From the NCBI GenBank assembly GCA_044375195.1, contig JBILNB010000015.1, positions 7,619 to 71,618 of the forward strand: DNA of 64,000 nucleotides. Reading direction: 5' to 3'. Position numbers and translations under genes: made by a program. The notes beneath the pieces are model-generated. The model did not search any database, had not been told where the DNA came from, and was given only the letters and a program-made list of their open reading frames with translations. Origin of the DNA: Rubrivivax sp. (lineage in GTDB: Bacteria > Pseudomonadota > Gammaproteobacteria > Burkholderiales > Burkholderiaceae_C). Position 1 is the stretch's first letter, and every line of letters begins with the position of its first letter. Shown piece after piece: positions 13,002-21,740 of this stretch.

Positions 13002-13715
13002 TCAGGGGGCCGGCTGCAGTTGCGCGCGCAGCTTGCGGGTCAAGCCAGACAGGATCTGGCTGACGCGGGATTCGGTCACTTCAAGAACCGCTCCGATCTC
13101 CTTCAGGTTCAGCTCCTCGACGTAGTAGAGCTTCAGGACCAGCCGCTCGCGCTCGCTCAACTCGTCGATGCTGCGAGCCAGAAGGTCGACCATCTGATGG
13201 TGCTCGAGGAGCGCGTCCGGTTGCCGCCGGCCGTCGTCGGCGACGTTCAGCGCCTCTTCGTCCACGACCTCGATCGAGTGCGTCTCATAGCGGTGCGCGG
13301 CATCGCGCTCCTTGTGGAACTGGGCCAGGTCCATCCCCAGGTGCGCGGCGACCTCGCTGGAGCGCGCGCGCCGTCCCACCTGCCCGGACACCTCGTTGAC
13401 GGCCGCTTCCTCGATGCGCTGGAACGCCACGGCCGAGCGCGGCATGCCCGTCATGCGGCGCACCTCGTCGACCATGGCGCCGCGGATGCGACTGAGGGCG
13501 AAACGCTCGAACTCCTCTCCCTTGGCGGGGTCGAAGGCTTGCGCGGCTTCGATCAAGCCCACCATGCCGACCTGCACGAGCTCCTCGGTGTCCATGAACG
13601 GGGGCAGGCGCACCTTCAGGTGCACCGCAACCCGCTTGACCATGGGCATATGCTCCCGGACCAGCGCCTCGGTCACGCTGGGCGCCGGTCGGTAGAGCTT
13701 CAAGGCGGCGTCCAT
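13002..13715 (-). CDS. fliA: Flagellar sigma factor sigma28
   Basis: ELVQVGMVGLIEAAQAFD, RIRGAMVDEVR, LYYVEELNLKEIGAVLEVTESRVSQI. Confidence 0.95.
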   Translation of the reverse strand: MDAALKLYRPAPSVTEALVREHMPMVKRVAVHLKVRLPPFMDTEELVQVGMVGLIEAAQAFDPAKGEEFERFALSRIRGAMVDEVRRMTGMPRSAVAFQRIEEAAVNEVSGQVGRRARSSEVAAHLGMDLAQFHKERDAAHRYETHSIEVVDEEALNVADDGRRQPDALLEHHQMVDLLARSIDELSERERLVLKLYYVEELNLKEIGAVLEVTESRVSQILSGLTRKLRAQLQPAP

Positions 13716-13737
13716 CCAGATCCCGAGGGCCTGCCGC

Positions 13738-14565
13738 TCAGGCGGTGGCGGACGGCAGCCCGACCATGCGCGGCAGCAGGAACTGGATGCGCCCGGAGGG
13801 CTTGAGCGCGGGCCCGAGTGCGGCCACCTTGCCGGCCAGCTGCCGGAAACTCCGCGCCGCCGTGCTGTCAGGCGCATGGCGATTGACGGGCAGGTAGCGC
13901 TCCTGGGCGGCCTGCACCGCGTCGTCGCGCTCGATCGACCCGAGATACCCCAGCTTCGCTCCGAGAAAGCGCTGCGCGACGTCGGCCATGTGGTTGAACA
14001 ACTTGCGGCCGTGCGCCTGGCTGTTGACCATGTTGGGCAGCAGGTAGACGTCCTCGAGGCCCTCCTCGAGGGTCAGGATCTTCAGCAGGCCGTAGGCGTC
14101 GGCGATGGAGGCGGGCTGGTCGCACACGACGACGAAGCGCCGCTGGCACGCGGCCATGAAGGAGACGACCGACGGCGTGATGCCGGCCGCCACGTCCACC
14201 AGCAGGCAGTCCACCGGCTCGTCCAGGTTGTCCATCACGTGGATCACGGACGAGACCTGCGCCTCGTCCATCGACGCCAGCTCGCGCAGGCCCGACGCGC
14301 CCGGGATGAGCCGCACGCCCGGCGCCGCATCGACCAGCACCTCGCCCAGCGTCTTCTCGCCGCGCAGCACGTGCCCCATGTTGAAGCTTGCGCGCACGCC
14401 CAGCGCCAGCTGCGCGTTCGCCAGCCCGAGGTCGGCGTCGAGCACCATGACCCGCAGCCCCCGCTCGGCCAGCGCAATGGCGAGGCTGACCGAGACCGTG
14501 GTCTTGCCCACGCCGCCCTTGCCGCTGGCCACGCCGATGACCATGGGCCGAAAATAGTCAGGCAT
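13738..14565 (-). CDS. flhG: MinD-like flagellar number regulator FlhG/FleN
   Basis: [33 protein letters not shown]; follows flhF. Confidence 0.9.
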
Positions 14566-15745
14566 GGCGCACCCCCGCGCTGTCGAGTTCGCCTGTTGGC
14601 ACGCTGGTCTCGCTTCTATTTTCGAGTAATGGCGTAAGAGTATCTTCAATCAGTTTACGCGTATTGACGGTCAGGGATGTCTCCCCCGAGGTGGCCCAGC
14701 GCGTTCCCGAGACCGCGCGCACCTGCCATGGTCTGCCGTCGAGCAGGTGGTCGATCAGCGGCCAGGGCCGTTCGGCAATGTCGAGTCGGGTCACGAGCAT
14801 GTTCGGGCCTTCTGCGGTGGCGGCCACCCGGCGCAGGGTCTGGACCGAGGCGTCGGCGGCGACCACTGCATGGAATTGGGCATCGTTTTCTGCGGTGAGG
14901 AAGGAGGCCAGGTCGGCAGCGAGTTGTCGTCCGTCGCTGTGCGCGGTGTCGACGAACACCGCCGAGCGGTCGGACAGCTCGTCGAGCAGCACGCTCAAGG
15001 CTTCGGGGTCGCGGGCGCGGTAGGCGTCGACGCCGCACTGTGCGGCCAGCGCCTGGGTCTGGCTCCAGGCGCCCATGCGCGCGTCCTGGTAGCTGATCCA
15101 GACCACATGGTCGGGGCCCAGACGCGAGGCGGCCTGGGCCACGAGGCGGGCGCACATCAGCGTCTTGCCGGCGCCCGCCGGACCGTAGAGCACGTGGATG
15201 CCGGACCAGTCCGTGTCCGAAGTGGTGCAGAACATCGGCTCCAGCAACCTGCCCAGGTGCTCGCCGAGGCGGCCGAAGGCTTCGGTGGCGGTCTGCGCCT
15301 GCGCCAGCGCGGGTGCCAGCCGCGCCTGCAGGCGCGAGGGCACGCCCTCGTCGAGCATCGCGTTCACCACGGCCCGCACCTCGGGGTGGGCGGTCGCGAT
15401 CGCGTGGTCCGCGCCGAGCCGGCTGCTCCACAGCATGTCCTGGCGGAGCTGTGCGATCTCGGACTTGATGGTGTCCACGATGTCGCGTTCGCGCACGGCC
15501 GGGACCGGCGCGCCCGGGCGATTGCGCTCGTTCGTCCCGGCAGCGGCCCGCGCCGCCTCCACGTCAACGGTCGCGGCCGTGTCGGTGACTGCCGCTGGCG
15601 CCTGCGTCGTCTCCACGGCGATGATCAGCTCGGTCATCCCCTCCAGCTCGGCGCTGGATATGAAGAGCGCGTTCTTGCCGTGCTCGAGAACTGCGCGTTC
15701 CGAGGCGGCGCGCAGGTCCCGGGCAACGATGCGTTTGAGTTCCAT
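14558..15745 (-). CDS. flhF: SRP-family GTPase FlhF (divergent)
   Basis: N-terminal [11 protein letters not shown]-loop [23 protein letters not shown]; lies between flhA and flhG. Confidence 0.8.
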
Positions 15746-15771
15746 GGCGTCTCGAGGCGTGGTTCTTCGGC

Positions 15772-17886
15772 TCAGGCCAGACGGCTTGCGCTCTCGGCCG
15801 CGACCGTGCGGATCACCTTCACCGACTGCTCGTCAGGTATCTCGGCATAGGACAGGACGGTCAGCGTGGGAATGCGATGCCTGGCTGCCCGCGCGAGCCA
15901 GGTGCGGATGCTCGGAGAGACCACGAGAACCGGCGACAGCCCCTGCGTCTCCATCTCTGCGGCACTTTCGCGCAGCGCGCCGAACAGGCGCTCGGCCAGA
16001 CCGGGCTCCAGCATCACGCCGGCACGCGGGTTGCTCTGCTGCACGACGTTGTGCAGCAACTGCTCCAGCCCCTGGTCCAGGGCCATGACGGTGAGGACGT
16101 CGCCGTTGTCGACCAGGCCCTGCACGATCATGCGGCCCAACCGGGGCCTGACGATGGCCATCAACTGATCCGGATCCTGGGTGGTGCCGCCGGCGTCGCT
16201 GAGCGTCTCGGCGATCGTGCGCATGTCGCGGATGGTCACCCCTTCGGCCAGCAGGTTCTGCAGCGTGCGGGTGACCACGCCCAGCGAGAGCTTGCCGGGG
16301 ACAAGTTCCCCGATCAGCTTGGGAGACTTCGCCGCCACCTTGTCGAGCAGCTTTTGCGTCTCGTCGTGGCTCAGCAGTTCCGCGGCGTTGTCCAGCAGCA
16401 CCTTGTTCAGGTGCGTGGCGATCGCAGTCGCCGGATCGACCACCGTGTAGCCCAGGGTGCGCGCGTAGTCGCGCTGGGACGGGTCGATCCAGGTGGCGTC
16501 CAGCCCGAATGCCGGCTCCTTGGTGGGCTGCCCTTCGAGCTTGCCGTAGACCGTTCCGGGGTTGATGGCGAGTTCGCGCCCGACCTTGACCTCGCCGCGG
16601 CCCCGGACCACGCCGTTGAGCACGATGTGGTAGGAATCCGGCGGCAGGTTCAGCGCGTCCCTGATGCGCACGGGCTGCACGAGGAAGCCGAGCTCCGAGG
16701 AGAGCTTCTTGCGGACGCCCTTGATGCGCGTCATCATCTGGCCGCCGCTCTCCGGATTGACCAGCGGTATCAGGCCGTAGCCGATTTCCATGCCGATCGG
16801 GTCGACGTGCTCCACGTCGTCCCAGTCGAGATCCCGGGCGGCTTCTGGCGTGGTCGAAGGGCCGGCCGCGGCCGGCGCCGCGGGCCGCTGCGCCGCGATC
16901 GCGCGGCTGCGCACGATGCCCGCCCCGATGGCCACGGTGAGCCCCGCCAGCAGCAGGAACACCACGTGCGGCATCCCGGGCACGATGCCGATGAGGGTCA
17001 GGATGCCCGCGGCAATGAACAAGGCCGAGGGGTTGGCGAGCTGGCTCTGCGCCTGCTCGGTCATCGACTCCGAGGTGGTGACCCGGGTGACGATGATCGC
17101 CGTGGCCAGCGACATCAGCAGCGCCGGCACCTGTGCCACCAGACCGTCACCGATGGTCAGCAGGACATAGATCCGGGTCGCCTCCGACAGCGGCAGGTTG
17201 TGCTGTGCCAGGCCCACCGCCAGGCCGCCGACGATGTTGATGATCAGGATCAGCAGGCCCGCGATCGCGTCGCCGCTGACGAACTTGGAGGCGCCGTCCA
17301 TGGAGCCGAAGAAGTCCGCCTCCTGGGACAGCTCCTCGCGCCTGCGCTTGGCCGTCTCCTGGTCGATCACGCCTGCATTGAGGTCGGCGTCGATCGACAT
17401 CTGCTTGCCCGGCATCGCATCCAGCGTGAAGCGGGCGTTGACTTCCGAAACCCGACCGGCCCCCTTCGTCACGACGAAGAAGTTCACGATCATCAAGATG
17501 ATGAAAATGATGAAACCGACAAAATAGTTCCCGCCCACCACGAAATGACCGAATGCGGCGATGACCTGACCGGCCGCGTCGGGCCCCTTGTGGCCTTCGA
17601 CCAGGATGACGCGCGTCGAAGCCACGTTCAGCGCCAGGCGCAGCATGGTCGCGAACAGCAGGACCGAGGGAAACGAGGAAAAGTCCAGCGGGCGCCGGGT
17701 GGCGATGGCCACCATGACGACGACGAGCCCGACCACGATGTTGAACGTGAAGAGGATGTCGAGCAGCAGCGGCGGCAGCGGCACGACGAGCATCGCCATG
17801 ATGGCGAGCACCAATGCCGGTATGCCCAAGCCCGAAGGCTCGAACCTGCGCATGCTCTGCCGGAAGATCGCCAGGGTGTCGGCCAT
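15772..17886 (-). CDS. flhA: Export gate protein FlhA
   Basis: RFTLDAMPGKQMSIDADLNAG, FFGSMDGASKFVSGDAIAG, cytoplasmic domain with VVDPATAIATHL. Confidence 0.97.
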   Translation of the reverse strand: MADTLAIFRQSMRRFEPSGLGIPALVLAIMAMLVVPLPPLLLDILFTFNIVVGLVVVMVAIATRRPLDFSSFPSVLLFATMLRLALNVASTRVILVEGHKGPDAAGQVIAAFGHFVVGGNYFVGFIIFIILMIVNFFVVTKGAGRVSEVNARFTLDAMPGKQMSIDADLNAGVIDQETAKRRREELSQEADFFGSMDGASKFVSGDAIAGLLILIINIVGGLAVGLAQHNLPLSEATRIYVLLTIGDGLVAQVPALLMSLATAIIVTRVTTSESMTEQAQSQLANPSALFIAAGILTLIGIVPGMPHVVFLLLAGLTVAIGAGIVRSRAIAAQRPAAPAAAGPSTTPEAARDLDWDDVEHVDPIGMEIGYGLIPLVNPESGGQMMTRIKGVRKKLSSELGFLVQPVRIRDALNLPPDSYHIVLNGVVRGRGEVKVGRELAINPGTVYGKLEGQPTKEPAFGLDATWIDPSQRDYARTLGYTVVDPATAIATHLNKVLLDNAAELLSHDETQKLLDKVAAKSPKLIGELVPGKLSLGVVTRTLQNLLAEGVTIRDMRTIAETLSDAGGTTQDPDQLMAIVRPRLGRMIVQGLVDNGDVLTVMALDQGLEQLLHNVVQQSNPRAGVMLEPGLAERLFGALRESAAEMETQGLSPVLVVSPSIRTWLARAARHRIPTLTVLSYAEIPDEQSVKVIRTVAAESASRLA

Positions 17887-17926
17887 CGGTCATGTCGTCG
17901 GCGGCGGGTCGCCGCCACGCAGTGAA

Positions 17927-17941
17927 GCAACCGCTGTGCCA
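17927..17941 (-). promoter_or_regulatory. Sigma54 promoter of the flhA operon
   Basis: TGGCAC-AGCGG-TTGC on the minus strand, 40 nt upstream of the flhA ATG. Confidence 0.85.
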
Positions 17942-17997
17942 TGCTTTTCCGACACCCCCCGGGGCCGCCGCCCTTCGGCGGGCGCGGCGTCCGCTCC

Positions 17998-18013
17998 CGG
18001 CAAGGGTTTGCCG
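17998..18013. promoter_or_regulatory. Palindromic enhancer candidate CGGCAA-N4-TTGCCG
   Basis: CGGCAAGGGTTTGCCG in the flhA/fliK divergent gap. Confidence 0.65.
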
Positions 18014-18047
18014 GTCACGGTTCTTGCTTTGTGGTGTCACGGTTCTT
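18014..18047. repeat. Direct repeat GTCACGGTTCTT x2, 22-bp period
   Basis: Exact 12-mers at 18014-18025 and 18036-18047. Confidence 0.7.
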
Positions 18048-18103
18048 TCCTGAGACATCCGTGCAAGACGTGTATTCAGAGCAAATGCTAGAAGGGCCCT
18101 CAT

Positions 18104-21073
18104 ATGGCTGATCCGCTGTCCCCGGCTGCGGCGCCGGCGACTGGAGCCGATTTCCTTGCGCCGGCGACGCTCGTGCGCGGCGACGCCGCCCGTGCGCCCG
18201 GCGTGCCGGCGTCCGCCGAGGCGGTCGGCGAGAGCTTCGACGCGCACTTGCAGCGCGCCCGCAGGCTTCAGCGCGGTGAGGCGCCTGGTGCCGATGCCGG
18301 CGCGCAGGGCACCGTCATGCCGCCTCCTGGCGGCATGGTGTTGCCGTCCGGCATGGGTGCGGCCGGTGTGGCGCCCGACGACGTCGTGGCGGAAGCGGTG
18401 CCCTCGCCGCTGGATCCCTTTGCGGCCGTGCCGCCGCCGGGCGTGCCGACATCGCCTGCCGCGCGGGACTTGACCGCCGGGCGGACCGAAGTCTGGTCCT
18501 TAGAAGAGGCGCAGGGGTTTGCGGGGGCGGGTCCCGCGGCGCAGGCGTCTGCGCGCGCGAGCGCCGGCGTCGTCCCTGTCGAGGCCACCGCGGTTGCGCT
18601 TGCCTCCCGTGCGGCGGCCGGGCCTTGGGCCGTACCTGGCCCCACCCCTGAAGCGGGTCGGGCGCCGCAGGCGGCGGAGTCGTCTGCGCCCCCGGGCGCA
18701 CCGGCGCTTTCCGCTGCGGCGCCGACCGACGCTCAGGGGGCGTGGGCAGGCCGACGGCAGCTGGCGCAGGCCGCGGACGGTGCACCGCCGCATCGAGACG
18801 CTCGTGCCGAGGGCGATGGAGTCTTCGCGGGCGCCAGCCTGCGCGCGGAGCTCCTGGCGCGCGGCGACGGCCCGCCCGTCGACAACGTCGCGCGCGCGTT
18901 CGAATCGGACGTCGCGGCCCGGGCCCGGGCGTTCCCGGTCGGCGTGATCGACACCGCGGCGCGGTCTCGCGCTTCCACCGATCTCGATGTGGATGCGGCG
19001 TCGGCTGAATCGGCGCAGGCGGTGTCCGCACTCGGCGCTGCGCCGCAGGCTGCCCCGTTGCAGCAAGACGTTCGCACCGACAGCGGCGCGGCCTTGCAGG
19101 CGCGGGCCTTGTCTGCGACCCGGTTCGAGACCGCGCCGCTGGCGCAGACGCCGGTGCAAGGGCCGTCCGAGCCGAGAACCCTGTGGGCGCCTGGCGTGAC
19201 GGCTGATGCGGCTGCTGCGGGTGGGGGGAGGGCGGCTGCTGACCCGCGCCCTGGCCTGGAGCCGGCCGGCGCGCGGGCACGAGCGCGCGGAGCTCAGGCA
19301 TCCGCTTCGCCCTTGCCCGTGGAGTTTTCATCCCGGCGCGCCGGGCTCGGCCGGCCCGGCTCGGTGCCGCCTCAGGCTTCCGAGCCAGGCCTCACGTCGG
19401 CGGTGTCCGGTTCGGCCTCACTGCCCCCTGGGTCGATCCCGGTGGCGCGAGCGGATGCGTTCGTGGCGGCCGGCGTGAAGGGGTCGACGCCGGGGCAGGA
19501 GGCTGCGGGCGAGGGCGCGCGCGCTGGCGCACCTGCCGCACCGCCGCAAGCCTTCGACCGCACGGTCAGCGCCGCGTCCCCCGACGTGATCAGCGGCGAA
19601 CGGGCGGGCAATGTCTGGCAGAACGGCGCGAGCGCAGGCTTTCCGGTACCGAGCGGTGCCCAGGAGCGCGTGACCACCCGAGCGCCGGGGCAGACGGCGG
19701 CGGGCGAGGGTGCCCGCGCTGGCGCACCGGCCGCACCGCCGCAAGCCTTCGACCGCACGGTCAGCGCGGCGTCCCCCGACGTGATCAGCGGCGAATGGGC
19801 GGGCAATGTCTGGCAGAACGGCGCGAGCGCAGGCTTTCCGGTACCGAGCGGTGCCCAGGAGCGCGTGACCACCCGAGCGCCGGGGCAGGAGGCTGCGGGC
19901 GAGGGCGCGCGCGCTGGCGCACCGGCCGCACCGCTGCAAGCTTTTGACCGCACCGTCAGCGCTGCGGTTTCCGACCTGATCCTTGGCGAGCTGGCGGGCA
20001 AGGCCTGGCGCAACGGCGCGGGTTCAGGCCTTTCGGGACCGAGGGGAGACAACGGGAACGCGGCCAACCAGGCCGCGGCCCAGGCGACCCTGGCTGCCAG
20101 TGGGGCGTCGCTCGATCCCGGGCGGGCCCTGCAATTCGCGCCGCTGGGCCCCGGGATCGACCTGATGGTCGGTCCCGAGCCCGAGCCCGCCATGCAGGAC
20201 CTGCTGGAGTTCGCGCGTGCCAGCGGCATCGGCGCCGACGCCCTGGAGCGTCTCTTCGGGCCGCAGGCGTCTACCGGATCGCGCTTGGGCGGCGGGGTGT
20301 CTCAAACATCGCTACCTACGCAAACAACGCAAACAGCGACATATCAGCAAACGACGCAAGCGCTGCCGGCGCCGCTTCCTGGCGCGTCGGCCTCGACCCT
20401 TGTCGCGCCGCCCTGGCTGGCGGCGGCAAGCCGTGTGGATGCGCGTGTGGACGGGGCGTCGGCGCGTCCCCGGAGCGCTTCGTTCGACGTCGACGGGGTG
20501 GATGCCCTGCTGGCGCCGACCGCCGCGTCCGGCGAGCGGTCGGATGTCCCGGCGTCGCCCGTGCTGTCTTCCGCCGCCGCCCCTTCGTCGGCTGCCGCGC
20601 AGCCCGCGCCCGCGCAAGCCGTGGCCGGCGCGGCGGTGCCGCCCGTCAGCTATGCCGAGATGTCCCATCGCGTCGCCCAGGCCGTGGCTTCGCGCATGGT
20701 GGCGGGTCTGCGCGAGGGCAGCGGCTCCCTGCGCCTGCAACTCGAGCCCCAGTCGCTGGGCCGCGTCGAGGTCCAGATGGCGCTCCAGGACGGCCGGCTC
20801 GAGGCCACCATCGCCGCGCATCAGGCCGGCACGCGAGATCTGCTGACCGACGGCATCGTGCGGCTGCGGGAGACGCTCGGACAGCTCGGCATGAATGTTG
20901 CGGTGATCAACGTCATCGATGGGTCCGGTGGCCGAGGCGACGGAAAGCCGACACGCCAGCGCCCCGGAGATACCGCCTACTCGCGCCAGGGCGCCGGCGC
21001 GGGCCGGGTGGAGGGTGCCTCGGAGGCCGGGCGGCCCAGTCGTGGCGTCAGTGGCCTGGATGTCTGGGCCTGA
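18104..21073 (+). CDS. fliK: Hook-length control protein FliK, 989 aa
   Basis: Low-complexity Ala/Pro N-terminal region, C-terminal T3S4 domain LRLQLEPQSLGRVEV...LRETLGQLG; heads the fliLMNOPQR-flhB run. Confidence 0.9.
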   Translation: MADPLSPAAAPATGADFLAPATLVRGDAARAPGVPASAEAVGESFDAHLQRARRLQRGEAPGADAGAQGTVMPPPGGMVLPSGMGAAGVAPDDVVAEAVPSPLDPFAAVPPPGVPTSPAARDLTAGRTEVWSLEEAQGFAGAGPAAQASARASAGVVPVEATAVALASRAAAGPWAVPGPTPEAGRAPQAAESSAPPGAPALSAAAPTDAQGAWAGRRQLAQAADGAPPHRDARAEGDGVFAGASLRAELLARGDGPPVDNVARAFESDVAARARAFPVGVIDTAARSRASTDLDVDAASAESAQAVSALGAAPQAAPLQQDVRTDSGAALQARALSATRFETAPLAQTPVQGPSEPRTLWAPGVTADAAAAGGGRAAADPRPGLEPAGARARARGAQASASPLPVEFSSRRAGLGRPGSVPPQASEPGLTSAVSGSASLPPGSIPVARADAFVAAGVKGSTPGQEAAGEGARAGAPAAPPQAFDRTVSAASPDVISGERAGNVWQNGASAGFPVPSGAQERVTTRAPGQTAAGEGARAGAPAAPPQAFDRTVSAASPDVISGEWAGNVWQNGASAGFPVPSGAQERVTTRAPGQEAAGEGARAGAPAAPLQAFDRTVSAAVSDLILGELAGKAWRNGAGSGLSGPRGDNGNAANQAAAQATLAASGASLDPGRALQFAPLGPGIDLMVGPEPEPAMQDLLEFARASGIGADALERLFGPQASTGSRLGGGVSQTSLPTQTTQTATYQQTTQALPAPLPGASASTLVAPPWLAAASRVDARVDGASARPRSASFDVDGVDALLAPTAASGERSDVPASPVLSSAAAPSSAAAQPAPAQAVAGAAVPPVSYAEMSHRVAQAVASRMVAGLREGSGSLRLQLEPQSLGRVEVQMALQDGRLEATIAAHQAGTRDLLTDGIVRLRETLGQLGMNVAVINVIDGSGGRGDGKPTRQRPGDTAYSRQGAGAGRVEGASEAGRPSRGVSGLDVWA
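19490..20020 (+). repeat. 195-bp (65-aa) in-frame tandem repeat, ~2.7 copies, inside fliK
   Basis: Units start at 19490, 19685 and 19880 (PGQEAAGEGARAGAPAAPPQAFDRTVSAAS...). Copies 1 and 2 are nearly identical; copy 3 decays. Confidence 0.95.
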
Positions 21074-21155
21074 GGCGTGCGCTTGCTGATGCGCGCCCCC
21101 GCAGGGGGATGGGTCAACCCGGGAGCGGCCCTTCGTTGACTCGAGAGTGACGCAG

Positions 21156-21740
21156 ATGGCTGAGGAAGAAAAGCAGGCAGAAGGCAAACGCAAGCTGCCG
21201 TTGTTGAAGGTGCTCGTGCTGGTGACCGGCGCGCTCGTCCTGCTGGGTCTGGTGGTCATGGCCTCGCTGGTGCTGACCGGCTACTTCGACAAGGTGGACG
21301 AACGCTCGGTCGAGGCGCAGCTCGAGCAGGTCCGCCGCGAGGCTGCGGCGTCGGCGCCTGCGCCCGGCAAGCGCGCCAGTGACGCTGACCGTGGCGCCAA
21401 GGCCAAGAAGGAGCAGCCGCGCTACGAGTACCGGTACCTGGAGTACGAGCGCCCGCTCGTGGCCAACGTCGCCAGCTCGCGCCGGGTAATGCAGGTGCAG
21501 ATCGCCTTCATGACCCGGTTCGACGAGCGCGTGACCAACAACCTGAAGAAGCATGAATTCGCGCTGCGCTCCGCGGCGCTGGATGTCATGCGGCAGGCCA
21601 CCGAGGCCGAACTCGGCAACCCGGACTTCCGCAAGATCCTCGGCGAGCGGCTTCGCACCGAGATCAACGCGGTGCTCGAGAGGCTCGAGGAATTCGGCGG
21701 CGTCGAGGAGGTGTACTTCACCTCCTTCGTCGTGCAGTGA
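21156..21740 (+). CDS. fliL: Basal-body-associated FliL (copy 1)
   Basis: N-terminal TM, LVANVASSRRVMQVQIAF, GVEEVYFTSFVVQ. Confidence 0.9.
   Translation: MAEEEKQAEGKRKLPLLKVLVLVTGALVLLGLVVMASLVLTGYFDKVDERSVEAQLEQVRREAAASAPAPGKRASDADRGAKAKKEQPRYEYRYLEYERPLVANVASSRRVMQVQIAFMTRFDERVTNNLKKHEFALRSAALDVMRQATEAELGNPDFRKILGERLRTEINAVLERLEEFGGVEEVYFTSFVVQ

Follow-up and report, generated by a model that had tools for sequence, protein, structure and literature searches.

The gene fliK of an uncultured freshwater Rubrivivax-like betaproteobacterium, which encodes the flagellar hook-length control protein, occurs in nature in two lengths that differ by exactly one copy of an in-frame tandem repeat. 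We studied the gene in a 64,000-nucleotide (nt) stretch of a Rubrivivax sp. contig (JBILNB010000015.1; henceforth the window), in which it carries three repeat units and encodes 989 amino acids (aa). By comparing the window with protein clusters, metagenomic contigs and sequencing runs, we found a natural copy-number polymorphism (i.e., two versus three units) across lake samples, supported by 18 runs in addition to assemblies. As a whole explanation we favour, with a little more confidence than doubt, that recombination within the array makes two- and three-unit FliK rulers which specify hooks of different length. The gene and the parts of its array are as follows.

18104..21073, plus strand: fliK, flagellar hook-length control protein, 989 aa, three-unit allele (ATG-initiated open reading frame, ORF; Pfam and PDB matches)
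19488..19682, plus strand: repeat unit c1, 195 nt, 65 aa (repeat search)
19683..19877, plus strand: repeat unit c2, 96% identical to c1; absent or fused with c1 in 924-aa alleles and the most polymorphic unit
19878..20072, plus strand: repeat unit c3, about 80% identical to c1 and c2; the older copy, invariant in every allele seen
19602..19693, plus strand: 92-nt exact repeat, copy 1 (c1 tail plus 11 nt of the c2 head); the longest substrate for unequal recombination
19797..19888, plus strand: 92-nt exact repeat, copy 2 (c2 tail plus 11 nt of the c3 head)

Tandem Repeats Finder reported the array with a period of 195 bp and 2.9 copies (19488-20043; score 881), and no other tandem repeat in the 64 kb of the window reached a score of 80. 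In the register that begins with PGQ, three full units span 19488-20072, and as 195 nt equal 65 codons they are translated in frame as aa 463-657. An earlier note on this DNA, made from the letters alone, had described an in-frame, 195-bp unit with two nearly identical first copies, and this is what we found; its estimate of about 2.7 copies was slightly low, given that the third unit is complete but strongly diverged in its 3' half. Specifically, eight nucleotides distinguish c2 from c1 (unit positions 12, 13, 17, 29, 32, 47, 86 and 114), all within the first 114 nt, with 5 synonymous and 2 non-synonymous codon differences (E466T and R500W). The final 81 nt of both units, together with the 11 nt that follow, are identical and make up the 92-nt exact repeat, which one run (X1) contained as a k=31 contig of 92 nt with roughly double depth. 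The exact stretches common to c1 and c2 are 27, 38 and 92 nt long. Unit c3 has 39 differences to c1 and 44 to c2, and compared with c1 these amount to 8 synonymous and 23 non-synonymous codons, chiefly in the 3' half of c3.

A search among 5.8 billion protein clusters returned seven matches, six of which (P0002-P0007) are 924 aa long, i.e., shorter than 989 aa by exactly one 65-aa unit; no four-unit protein was present among these matches. Twelve contigs carry the three-unit gene, and P0004, the commonest of the two-unit proteins, accounts for 8 contigs by itself, in both cases in independent assemblies from the Joint Genome Institute (JGI) and the European Nucleotide Archive (ENA). Both forms occur on contigs that are near-clonal with the window (two units in L004-L008, L013 and L014; three units in L009-L012 and L016), the flanks of which differ from it by 0-7 single-nucleotide polymorphisms (SNPs) in about 6-8 kb, mostly 0-2 per side (L013 has 5 downstream). 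The window itself carries a private T at position 18945 (Val281), where all other contigs examined have C (Ala281). The earlier note had proposed that copy number be compared among strains, and this comparison yields both alleles, in assemblies as well as in runs.

We considered whether such a pattern could be produced by assembly, either because the third unit is spurious or because two-unit contigs are collapsed versions of a three-unit gene. The array does break assemblies: in the nearest genome, the pond metagenome-assembled genome (MAG) Rubrivivax sp. D4_MAG_00017 (a GTDB species representative), fliK is split over two contigs, one ending at window position 19610 (L001) and the other starting at 19827 (L002), and its copy number is therefore unreadable, while several cluster members (P0010, P0012-P0014, P0016 and P0017) are gene fragments that start in or just before the array. 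Moreover, an assembler that skips the c2 loop would yield exactly a [c1][c3] gene. We consider it extremely improbable that the polymorphism is artefactual, and the evidence against an artefact comes from both forms of the gene. Independent assembly yielded the three-unit form at least 12 times. Eight nucleotides are private to c2, and the junction of c2 with the preceding unit (i.e., tail to c2 head) is found as exact 31-mer contigs in many runs. To read the array below the level of assemblies, we inspected the k=31 contigs (Logan) of 20 runs for branches and depth. Contigs joining the unit tail to the c2 head and to the c3 head were both present in 12 DNA runs (X1-X4, X9-X13, X15, X16 and probably X14). 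By contrast, in six runs (X5, X7, X8 and X17-X19) a single 209-nt contig of the unit body led unbranched into a c3-type head, and their k=31 contigs, at up to 29x, held no c2-head words. The flank depth was 22, 29 and 14x in X5, X7 and X8, respectively, and in one-body runs the depth of the unit body was close to that of the flank (e.g., 23.3 vs. 22.1, 34.7 vs. 29.4 and 25.8 vs. 22.3), with head words common to c1 and c3 at about twice the depth of the body. The two-unit gene thus exists at the level of raw words, regardless of how an assembler resolves repeats. In addition, the unique flank in contig L014 leads directly into a c2'-type head (a variant of c2 described below), and since flank and head have only 12 nt in common this join is not a de Bruijn product. 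Considering the k=31 branches and depths and the independent three-unit assemblies, we rejected the assembly artefact, which the earlier note had named as the outcome that would undo its claim: 12 independent three-unit contigs and junction 31-mers in 12 runs speak for a real repeat. A practical corollary is that FliK lengths in MAG catalogues need caution, because the array breaks or shortens short-read assemblies.

The two-unit alleles differ in the composition of the unit that precedes c3. It is pure c1 in X17-X19 and L004-L008. In X5, X7 and X8 a c1 head (T47) is combined with the c2 variants G86/T114 at 100% of the depth, which places the crossover in unit nt 48-85, and in L013 c1 carries T114, with the crossover in nt 87-113. 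In L014 a variant of c2 (c2', with G12 and C24) stands straight after the unique flank, and the same variant recurs as the middle unit of the three-unit contig L016. A similar relationship was found in a diverged strain, where P0007 (two units) and P0019 (three units; analysed at the protein level) are the same outside the array and the P0007 unit consists of the head of P0019 unit 1 and the tail of P0019 unit 2. Given that c1/c2 hybrids are expected from unequal recombination or slippage between c1 and c2, their presence in two-unit genes points to repeated contraction of a three-unit parent by unequal homologous recombination or slippage, with at least three, and probably five, independent junctions. 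Three-unit arrays are also mosaic: the middle unit of X9, X11 and X12 has a c2 head with a c1-like body, and the first unit of X14 carries G86/T114. We saw no c1/c3 hybrid units, as would be expected from expansion by mispairing of c1 with c3. Hence the earlier idea of expansion and contraction by recombination agrees with the hybrid junctions as far as contraction from three to two units is concerned, and it finds no counterpart for expansion in the data (no array with at least four units and no c1/c3 hybrids).

Altogether, at least six structurally different arrays were found on flanks only a few SNPs apart, and the array therefore changes much faster than its surroundings. This raises the possibility of a contingency locus, i.e., a high-frequency, reversible switch akin to phase variation which would keep populations mixed for hook length. 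The 92-nt exact repeat would be a good substrate for RecA-dependent deletion or duplication, and the pace at which the array outruns its flanks is in keeping with such a switch. Nevertheless, samples were dominated by one allele (e.g., 100% G86/T114 in X5, X7 and X8, and no c2 words at 22x in X17), and mixed lengths within one population were not seen in the runs examined, at a sensitivity that covers variants above about 10% of the depth. No product of expansion (four units or c1/c3 hybrids) was observed either, and the same alleles recur in many samples, as they would for inherited lineages. We thus judge a contingency locus to be very unlikely, and the heritable hook-length "dial" suggested by the earlier note, if understood as frequent reversible switching, does not fit samples that are each dominated by a single allele.

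The order in which the units arose can be approached through relatives of the protein. The nearest of them, a 66%-identical FliK of an uncultured betaproteobacterium (L003/P0020), contains a single c3-like unit, and the closest full-length relatives (704-729 aa) have none; a hidden Markov model (HMM) of the unit, built from the array, had no match outside the immediate lineage. Since L003/P0020 has one c3-like unit and the other relatives lack it, sequence comparison indicates that the 65-aa unit is specific to this lineage, with c3 as the oldest and c2 as the youngest copy. Unit c2 carries five private changes that are synonymous, it is itself polymorphic, and both strain backgrounds have it (including P0019); the c1/c2 duplication therefore predates the present diversity of the population. 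The duplication, previously described as recent, may accordingly be called so only relative to c3. Compared with the window, the diverged strain (L015, P0007 and P0019) has 27 SNPs upstream of the array (2.1 kb; 17374-19484) and 2 downstream of it (3.6 kb), and it has 16 aa changes in FliK aa 1-462 but none in the C-terminal 332 aa. Either the half of fliK that encodes the N-terminus and the spacer is a hot spot of divergence, or it is a mosaic made by recombination.

What a change of one unit would mean depends on the function of the protein, and we found the ORF to be fliK on the basis of four lines of evidence: its Flg_hook domain, its match to a known FliK structure, the flagellar synteny and a conserved N-terminal motif. 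The Pfam domain Flg_hook (PF02120) covers aa 867-943, with E 1.8e-15 and a score of 56.9 bits (cut-off 29.8), and the last 157 aa of the ORF matched 2RRL, the C-terminal domain of Salmonella FliK (E 6.5e-6), as well as, weakly, the injectisome "ruler protein" 5CUK (E 0.12). NCBIfam gave no FliK model on the ORF at E<=0.001. The identical gene call was made in JGI and ENA assemblies. The features of FliK proteins that can be tested here, i.e., a T3S4/Flg_hook domain, a location in a flagellar gene cluster and a poorly conserved, flexible spacer, were all found, and both domain and synteny agree with the 989-aa FliK that the earlier note had read in this ORF at 18104-21073 on the plus strand. 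Along the protein we distinguish three conserved elements.

18218..18271, plus strand: N-terminal helix, aa 39-56, with the motif xSF(D/E)xxL(Q/R)RA; presumed export or hook-cap-contacting end (AlphaFold2, AF2, with a predicted local distance difference test score, pLDDT, of about 60; alignment)
20129..20260, plus strand: conserved motif, aa 676-719, LQFAPLGPGIDLMVGPEPEP...LLEFARASGIGADALERLFG (kept in P0020, P0021, P0024, P0026, P0028 and P0074; AF2 helices at 696-718)
20642..20932, plus strand: C-terminal T3S4 / Flg_hook domain, aa 847-943, presumed FlhB-contacting switch (Pfam; 2RRL; AF2)

The AF2 model was computed from a single sequence (mean pLDDT 37) and served solely to place folded islands, of which three were confident: the helix at aa 39-56, two helices at aa 696-718 and a domain at aa 847-941 with an alpha-beta-beta-beta-alpha-beta order and a pLDDT of 70-79. 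Residue F45, within the N-terminal helix motif, is invariant in an alignment with four distant FliK relatives, and the presumed role of this helix in export or hook-cap contact is taken by analogy from the N-terminal domain of Salmonella FliK. Between the islands, aa 60-654 have a pLDDT below 50 and are almost devoid of secondary structure, and in the array itself (aa 463-657), likewise below 50, none was predicted. The spacer is of low complexity and rich in A, G, P and S (A 23%, G 12%, P 10%), and the alignments with relatives are confined to the two ends of FliK, its centre being poorly conserved. The array is therefore part of a spacer, probably disordered, that separates the N-terminal helix from the T3S4 domain, i.e., the two ends on which the function of a ruler depends. 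In one relative (P0074) the motif LQFAPLGPGIDLMVGPEPEP...LLEFARASGIGADALERLFG stands close to the N-terminus, ahead of that protein's own 33-aa repeats, from which it follows that the side of the motif on which a spacer was inserted differs between lineages.

The mechanism that we propose for the window protein follows the one described in Salmonella, where FliK is exported at intervals while the hook grows and ends this growth through its C-terminal domain (PMC6126814). FliK would be both ruler and terminator, exported through the growing hook with its N-terminal end held at the hook tip; once the hook is long enough, the T3S4 domain would come to rest at the export gate (FlhB) and switch export from hook to filament proteins. 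In such a scheme the length of the chain between the two ends of FliK sets that of the hook. The spacer, very long in this lineage, owes part of its length to tandem duplication of the 65-aa unit (first c1/c3, later c1/c2), and the exact stretches shared by c1 and c2 would then allow unequal homologous recombination or slippage to delete a unit and gene conversion to shuffle variants, with the consequence that 924-aa and 989-aa rulers are found on near-identical chromosomes in natural populations. In engineered Salmonella FliK of 363-785 aa, hooks were tightly controlled at 42-135 nm, with 0.2 nm per inserted residue (PMC6126814). Each unit would thus most likely add about 10-13 nm of hook (about 13 nm at 0.2 nm per residue and about 10 nm at 0.15 nm per residue), and simply extending the Salmonella line to the three-unit allele would give a hook of some 160-170 nm, a value that lies outside the tested range and has a wide error. 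That this mechanism operates in the Rubrivivax-like host, how much hook length would change and whether swimming would be affected are points that we infer by analogy. As the unit is present two or three times depending on the lake sample, hook length probably varies naturally.

Several considerations weigh against this reading. A preprint describes short FliK variants of Salmonella without shorter hooks and concludes that FliK limits maximal length and is no strict tape measure (10.1101/2020.03.25.007062); in every published series, a longer FliK nevertheless gave a longer hook. The Salmonella slope comes from helical YscP inserts in proteins of 363-785 aa, a range beyond which 989 aa lies, and the length per residue may not be the same for a disordered, A/G/P-rich unit; low AF2 confidence from a single sequence is only weak evidence of disorder. 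With respect to the alleles, pure [c1][c3] genes could be the ancestral form instead of contractions, and alleles with at least four units could be hidden in short-read data. The host is known solely from metagenomes. Contigs of freshwater, lake and river metatranscriptome runs cover fliK (the junction of c1 tail and c2 head being present in X28), and DNA can be present in such libraries.

The serious rival is that the length polymorphism is neutral. Units would come and go in a recombination-prone, weakly constrained and disordered spacer, and neither hook length nor fitness would respond measurably, since hook length would be buffered in this host or else depend on a different region of FliK or on the supply of hook protein. 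We hold this to be possible, though the less probable account. It would fit the low complexity and predicted disorder of the spacer, the fast evolution of the N-terminal and spacer half in the diverged strain (16 changes against none, as given above), the frequency with which similar arrays seem to arise in other FliK proteins (9 of 149; see below) and the Salmonella variants which were shortened without a shorter hook (10.1101/2020.03.25.007062). On the other hand, all lengths inserted into Salmonella FliK (405-785 aa) lengthened the hook linearly, and motility, which is best at the wild-type hook length, was reduced away from it (PMC6126814). YscP, the needle ruler of Yersinia, behaves in the same way, with a longer protein giving a longer needle (PMC3469391). 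Furthermore, the ratio of 5 synonymous to 2 non-synonymous codon differences between c1 and c2 suggests some purifying constraint on the unit, although the numbers are small.

Compared with its relatives, the three-unit FliK is unusually long. We searched its C-terminal 330 aa against 1.84 billion representative proteins, which gave 2653 matches, and compared the best 149 besides its own cluster: their median length is 509 aa, six have at least 700 aa and the longest has 912 aa, so that 989 aa exceeds every one of these 149. Together with the anatomy of the array, this agrees with the claim, already made in the earlier note, that the spacer was lengthened by tandem duplication. To detect internal repeats in the other proteins we used a fixed-offset scan (at least 60% identity in 30-aa windows), which found repeats with a period of 18-41 aa in 9 of the 149 representatives (about 6%; P0074, P0157, P0131, P0080, P0105, P0059, P0103, P0138 and P0033), in the same part of the protein. 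As in the window FliK, the repeats of these proteins (e.g., the 33-aa repeats of P0074, and those of P0157, P0131 and P0080) lie between the N-terminal motif and the T3S4 domain, but their units are unrelated to ours and shorter (18-41 aa). Internal repeats may thus be a general route of FliK length evolution. In P0033 (912 aa) the whole Flg_hook/T3S4 domain is repeated five times, which is odd for a ruler.

With Salmonella enterica FliK (405 aa) the window protein shares the T3S4/Flg_hook domain, the position of its gene in a flagellar cluster and the layout of N-terminal end, spacer and switch domain. It differs in being 2.4 times longer, in having an A/G/P-rich, predicted disordered spacer instead of a helical one, and in the natural 65-aa tandem array within this spacer, the copy number of which varies in the wild. 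The closest precedent for the latter is YscP, also a secreted type III ruler with a C-terminal T3S4 domain, whose repeat number differs among natural strains: for Y. enterocolitica, PMC3469391 gives repeats of 14, 25 and 46 aa and proteins of 452, 515 and 538 aa, and, citing Wagner 2009, a linear relation between protein and needle length. Nevertheless, YscP is plasmid-borne and belongs to the virulence injectisome of a pathogen, whereas the FliK studied here is the chromosomal flagellar ruler of a free-living freshwater bacterium; its unit is unrelated in sequence to the YscP repeats, and its variation is found within near-clonal metagenomic populations with recombinant junctions that can be read. 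A literature search for natural variation of tandem-repeat copy number in FliK found no report, although absence from such a search is no proof. While the FliK family, the ruler principle and repeat-polymorphic injectisome rulers are known, a flagellar ruler whose length varies inside wild, near-clonal populations, and whose junctions of recombination can be read, is new, and it extends to the flagellum the gain and loss of repeats so far described for the injectisome YscP.

Hook length is very tightly controlled, and studies of the reason have relied almost entirely on engineered variants of Salmonella FliK. In this abundant lake bacterium, two ruler lengths (924 and 989 aa) occur naturally in genomes that are otherwise almost the same, and if the alleles differ in hook length they would permit a direct test of buckling predictions and of natural selection on hook length. 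Specifically, critical buckling torque falls with hook length and critical buckling force with its square, and in polar flagellates "flick" reorientation should change accordingly (Spöring et al., PMC6126814); the same paper, citing Son et al. 2013, predicts for polar flagellates that hook length shifts the buckling threshold that gives rise to "flick" turns. The set of fliA, a MinD/FlhG-like ATPase gene, flhF and flhA is one that polar flagellar systems typically have. As FlhF and an FlhG-like protein are encoded upstream of fliK (see below), the flagellum of the Rubrivivax-like host is probably polar. A more far-reaching scenario, to which we give only limited credence, is that wild populations of this freshwater, probably polar-flagellated bacterium carry heritable hook-length alleles, made by loss (perhaps also gain) of units, with one allele or another dominating in a given lake sample; these alleles would alter the "flick" and could be under ecological selection, which would turn the case into a natural experiment on the reasons for hook-length control.

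The genes on either side of fliK belong to the flagellar cluster. On the plus strand fliK is followed, in order, by fliL, fliM, fliN, fliO and fliP, and upstream of it the minus strand (13002-17886) holds fliA (sigma-28 family), a MinD/FlhG-like ATPase gene, flhF and flhA. Its immediate neighbours are given below.

15772..17886, minus strand: flhA, export gate, divergent neighbour (Pfam FHIPEP, E 1.4e-257)
21147..21740, plus strand: fliL, directly downstream of fliK (Pfam FliL; gene callers start 9 nt later, giving 194 aa)

Every sequencing run that holds the sequence is a lake-water or freshwater metagenome. In one metatranscriptome run (X25) a contig with a loose end at window position 19712 runs on as ACGCCGGGGCTCGAGGCTGCAGCGCAGGCC, which encodes PGLEAAAQA, the unit head of L003; the related lineage to which L003 belongs therefore co-occurs and is present in the same library. 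A scan for sigma-70 promoters in 17800-21300 returned nothing, and by eye the flhA-fliK spacer held no sigma-54 or sigma-28 match with correct spacing. The same intergenic region contains an 11-nt direct repeat, TCACGGTTCTT, at 18015 and 18037 (within 18015-18047), and metatranscriptome contigs of X25 and X27 both start at 18052, 52 nt upstream of the fliK start. The repeat may be the site of a regulator, and 18052 may mark the 5' end of a transcript.

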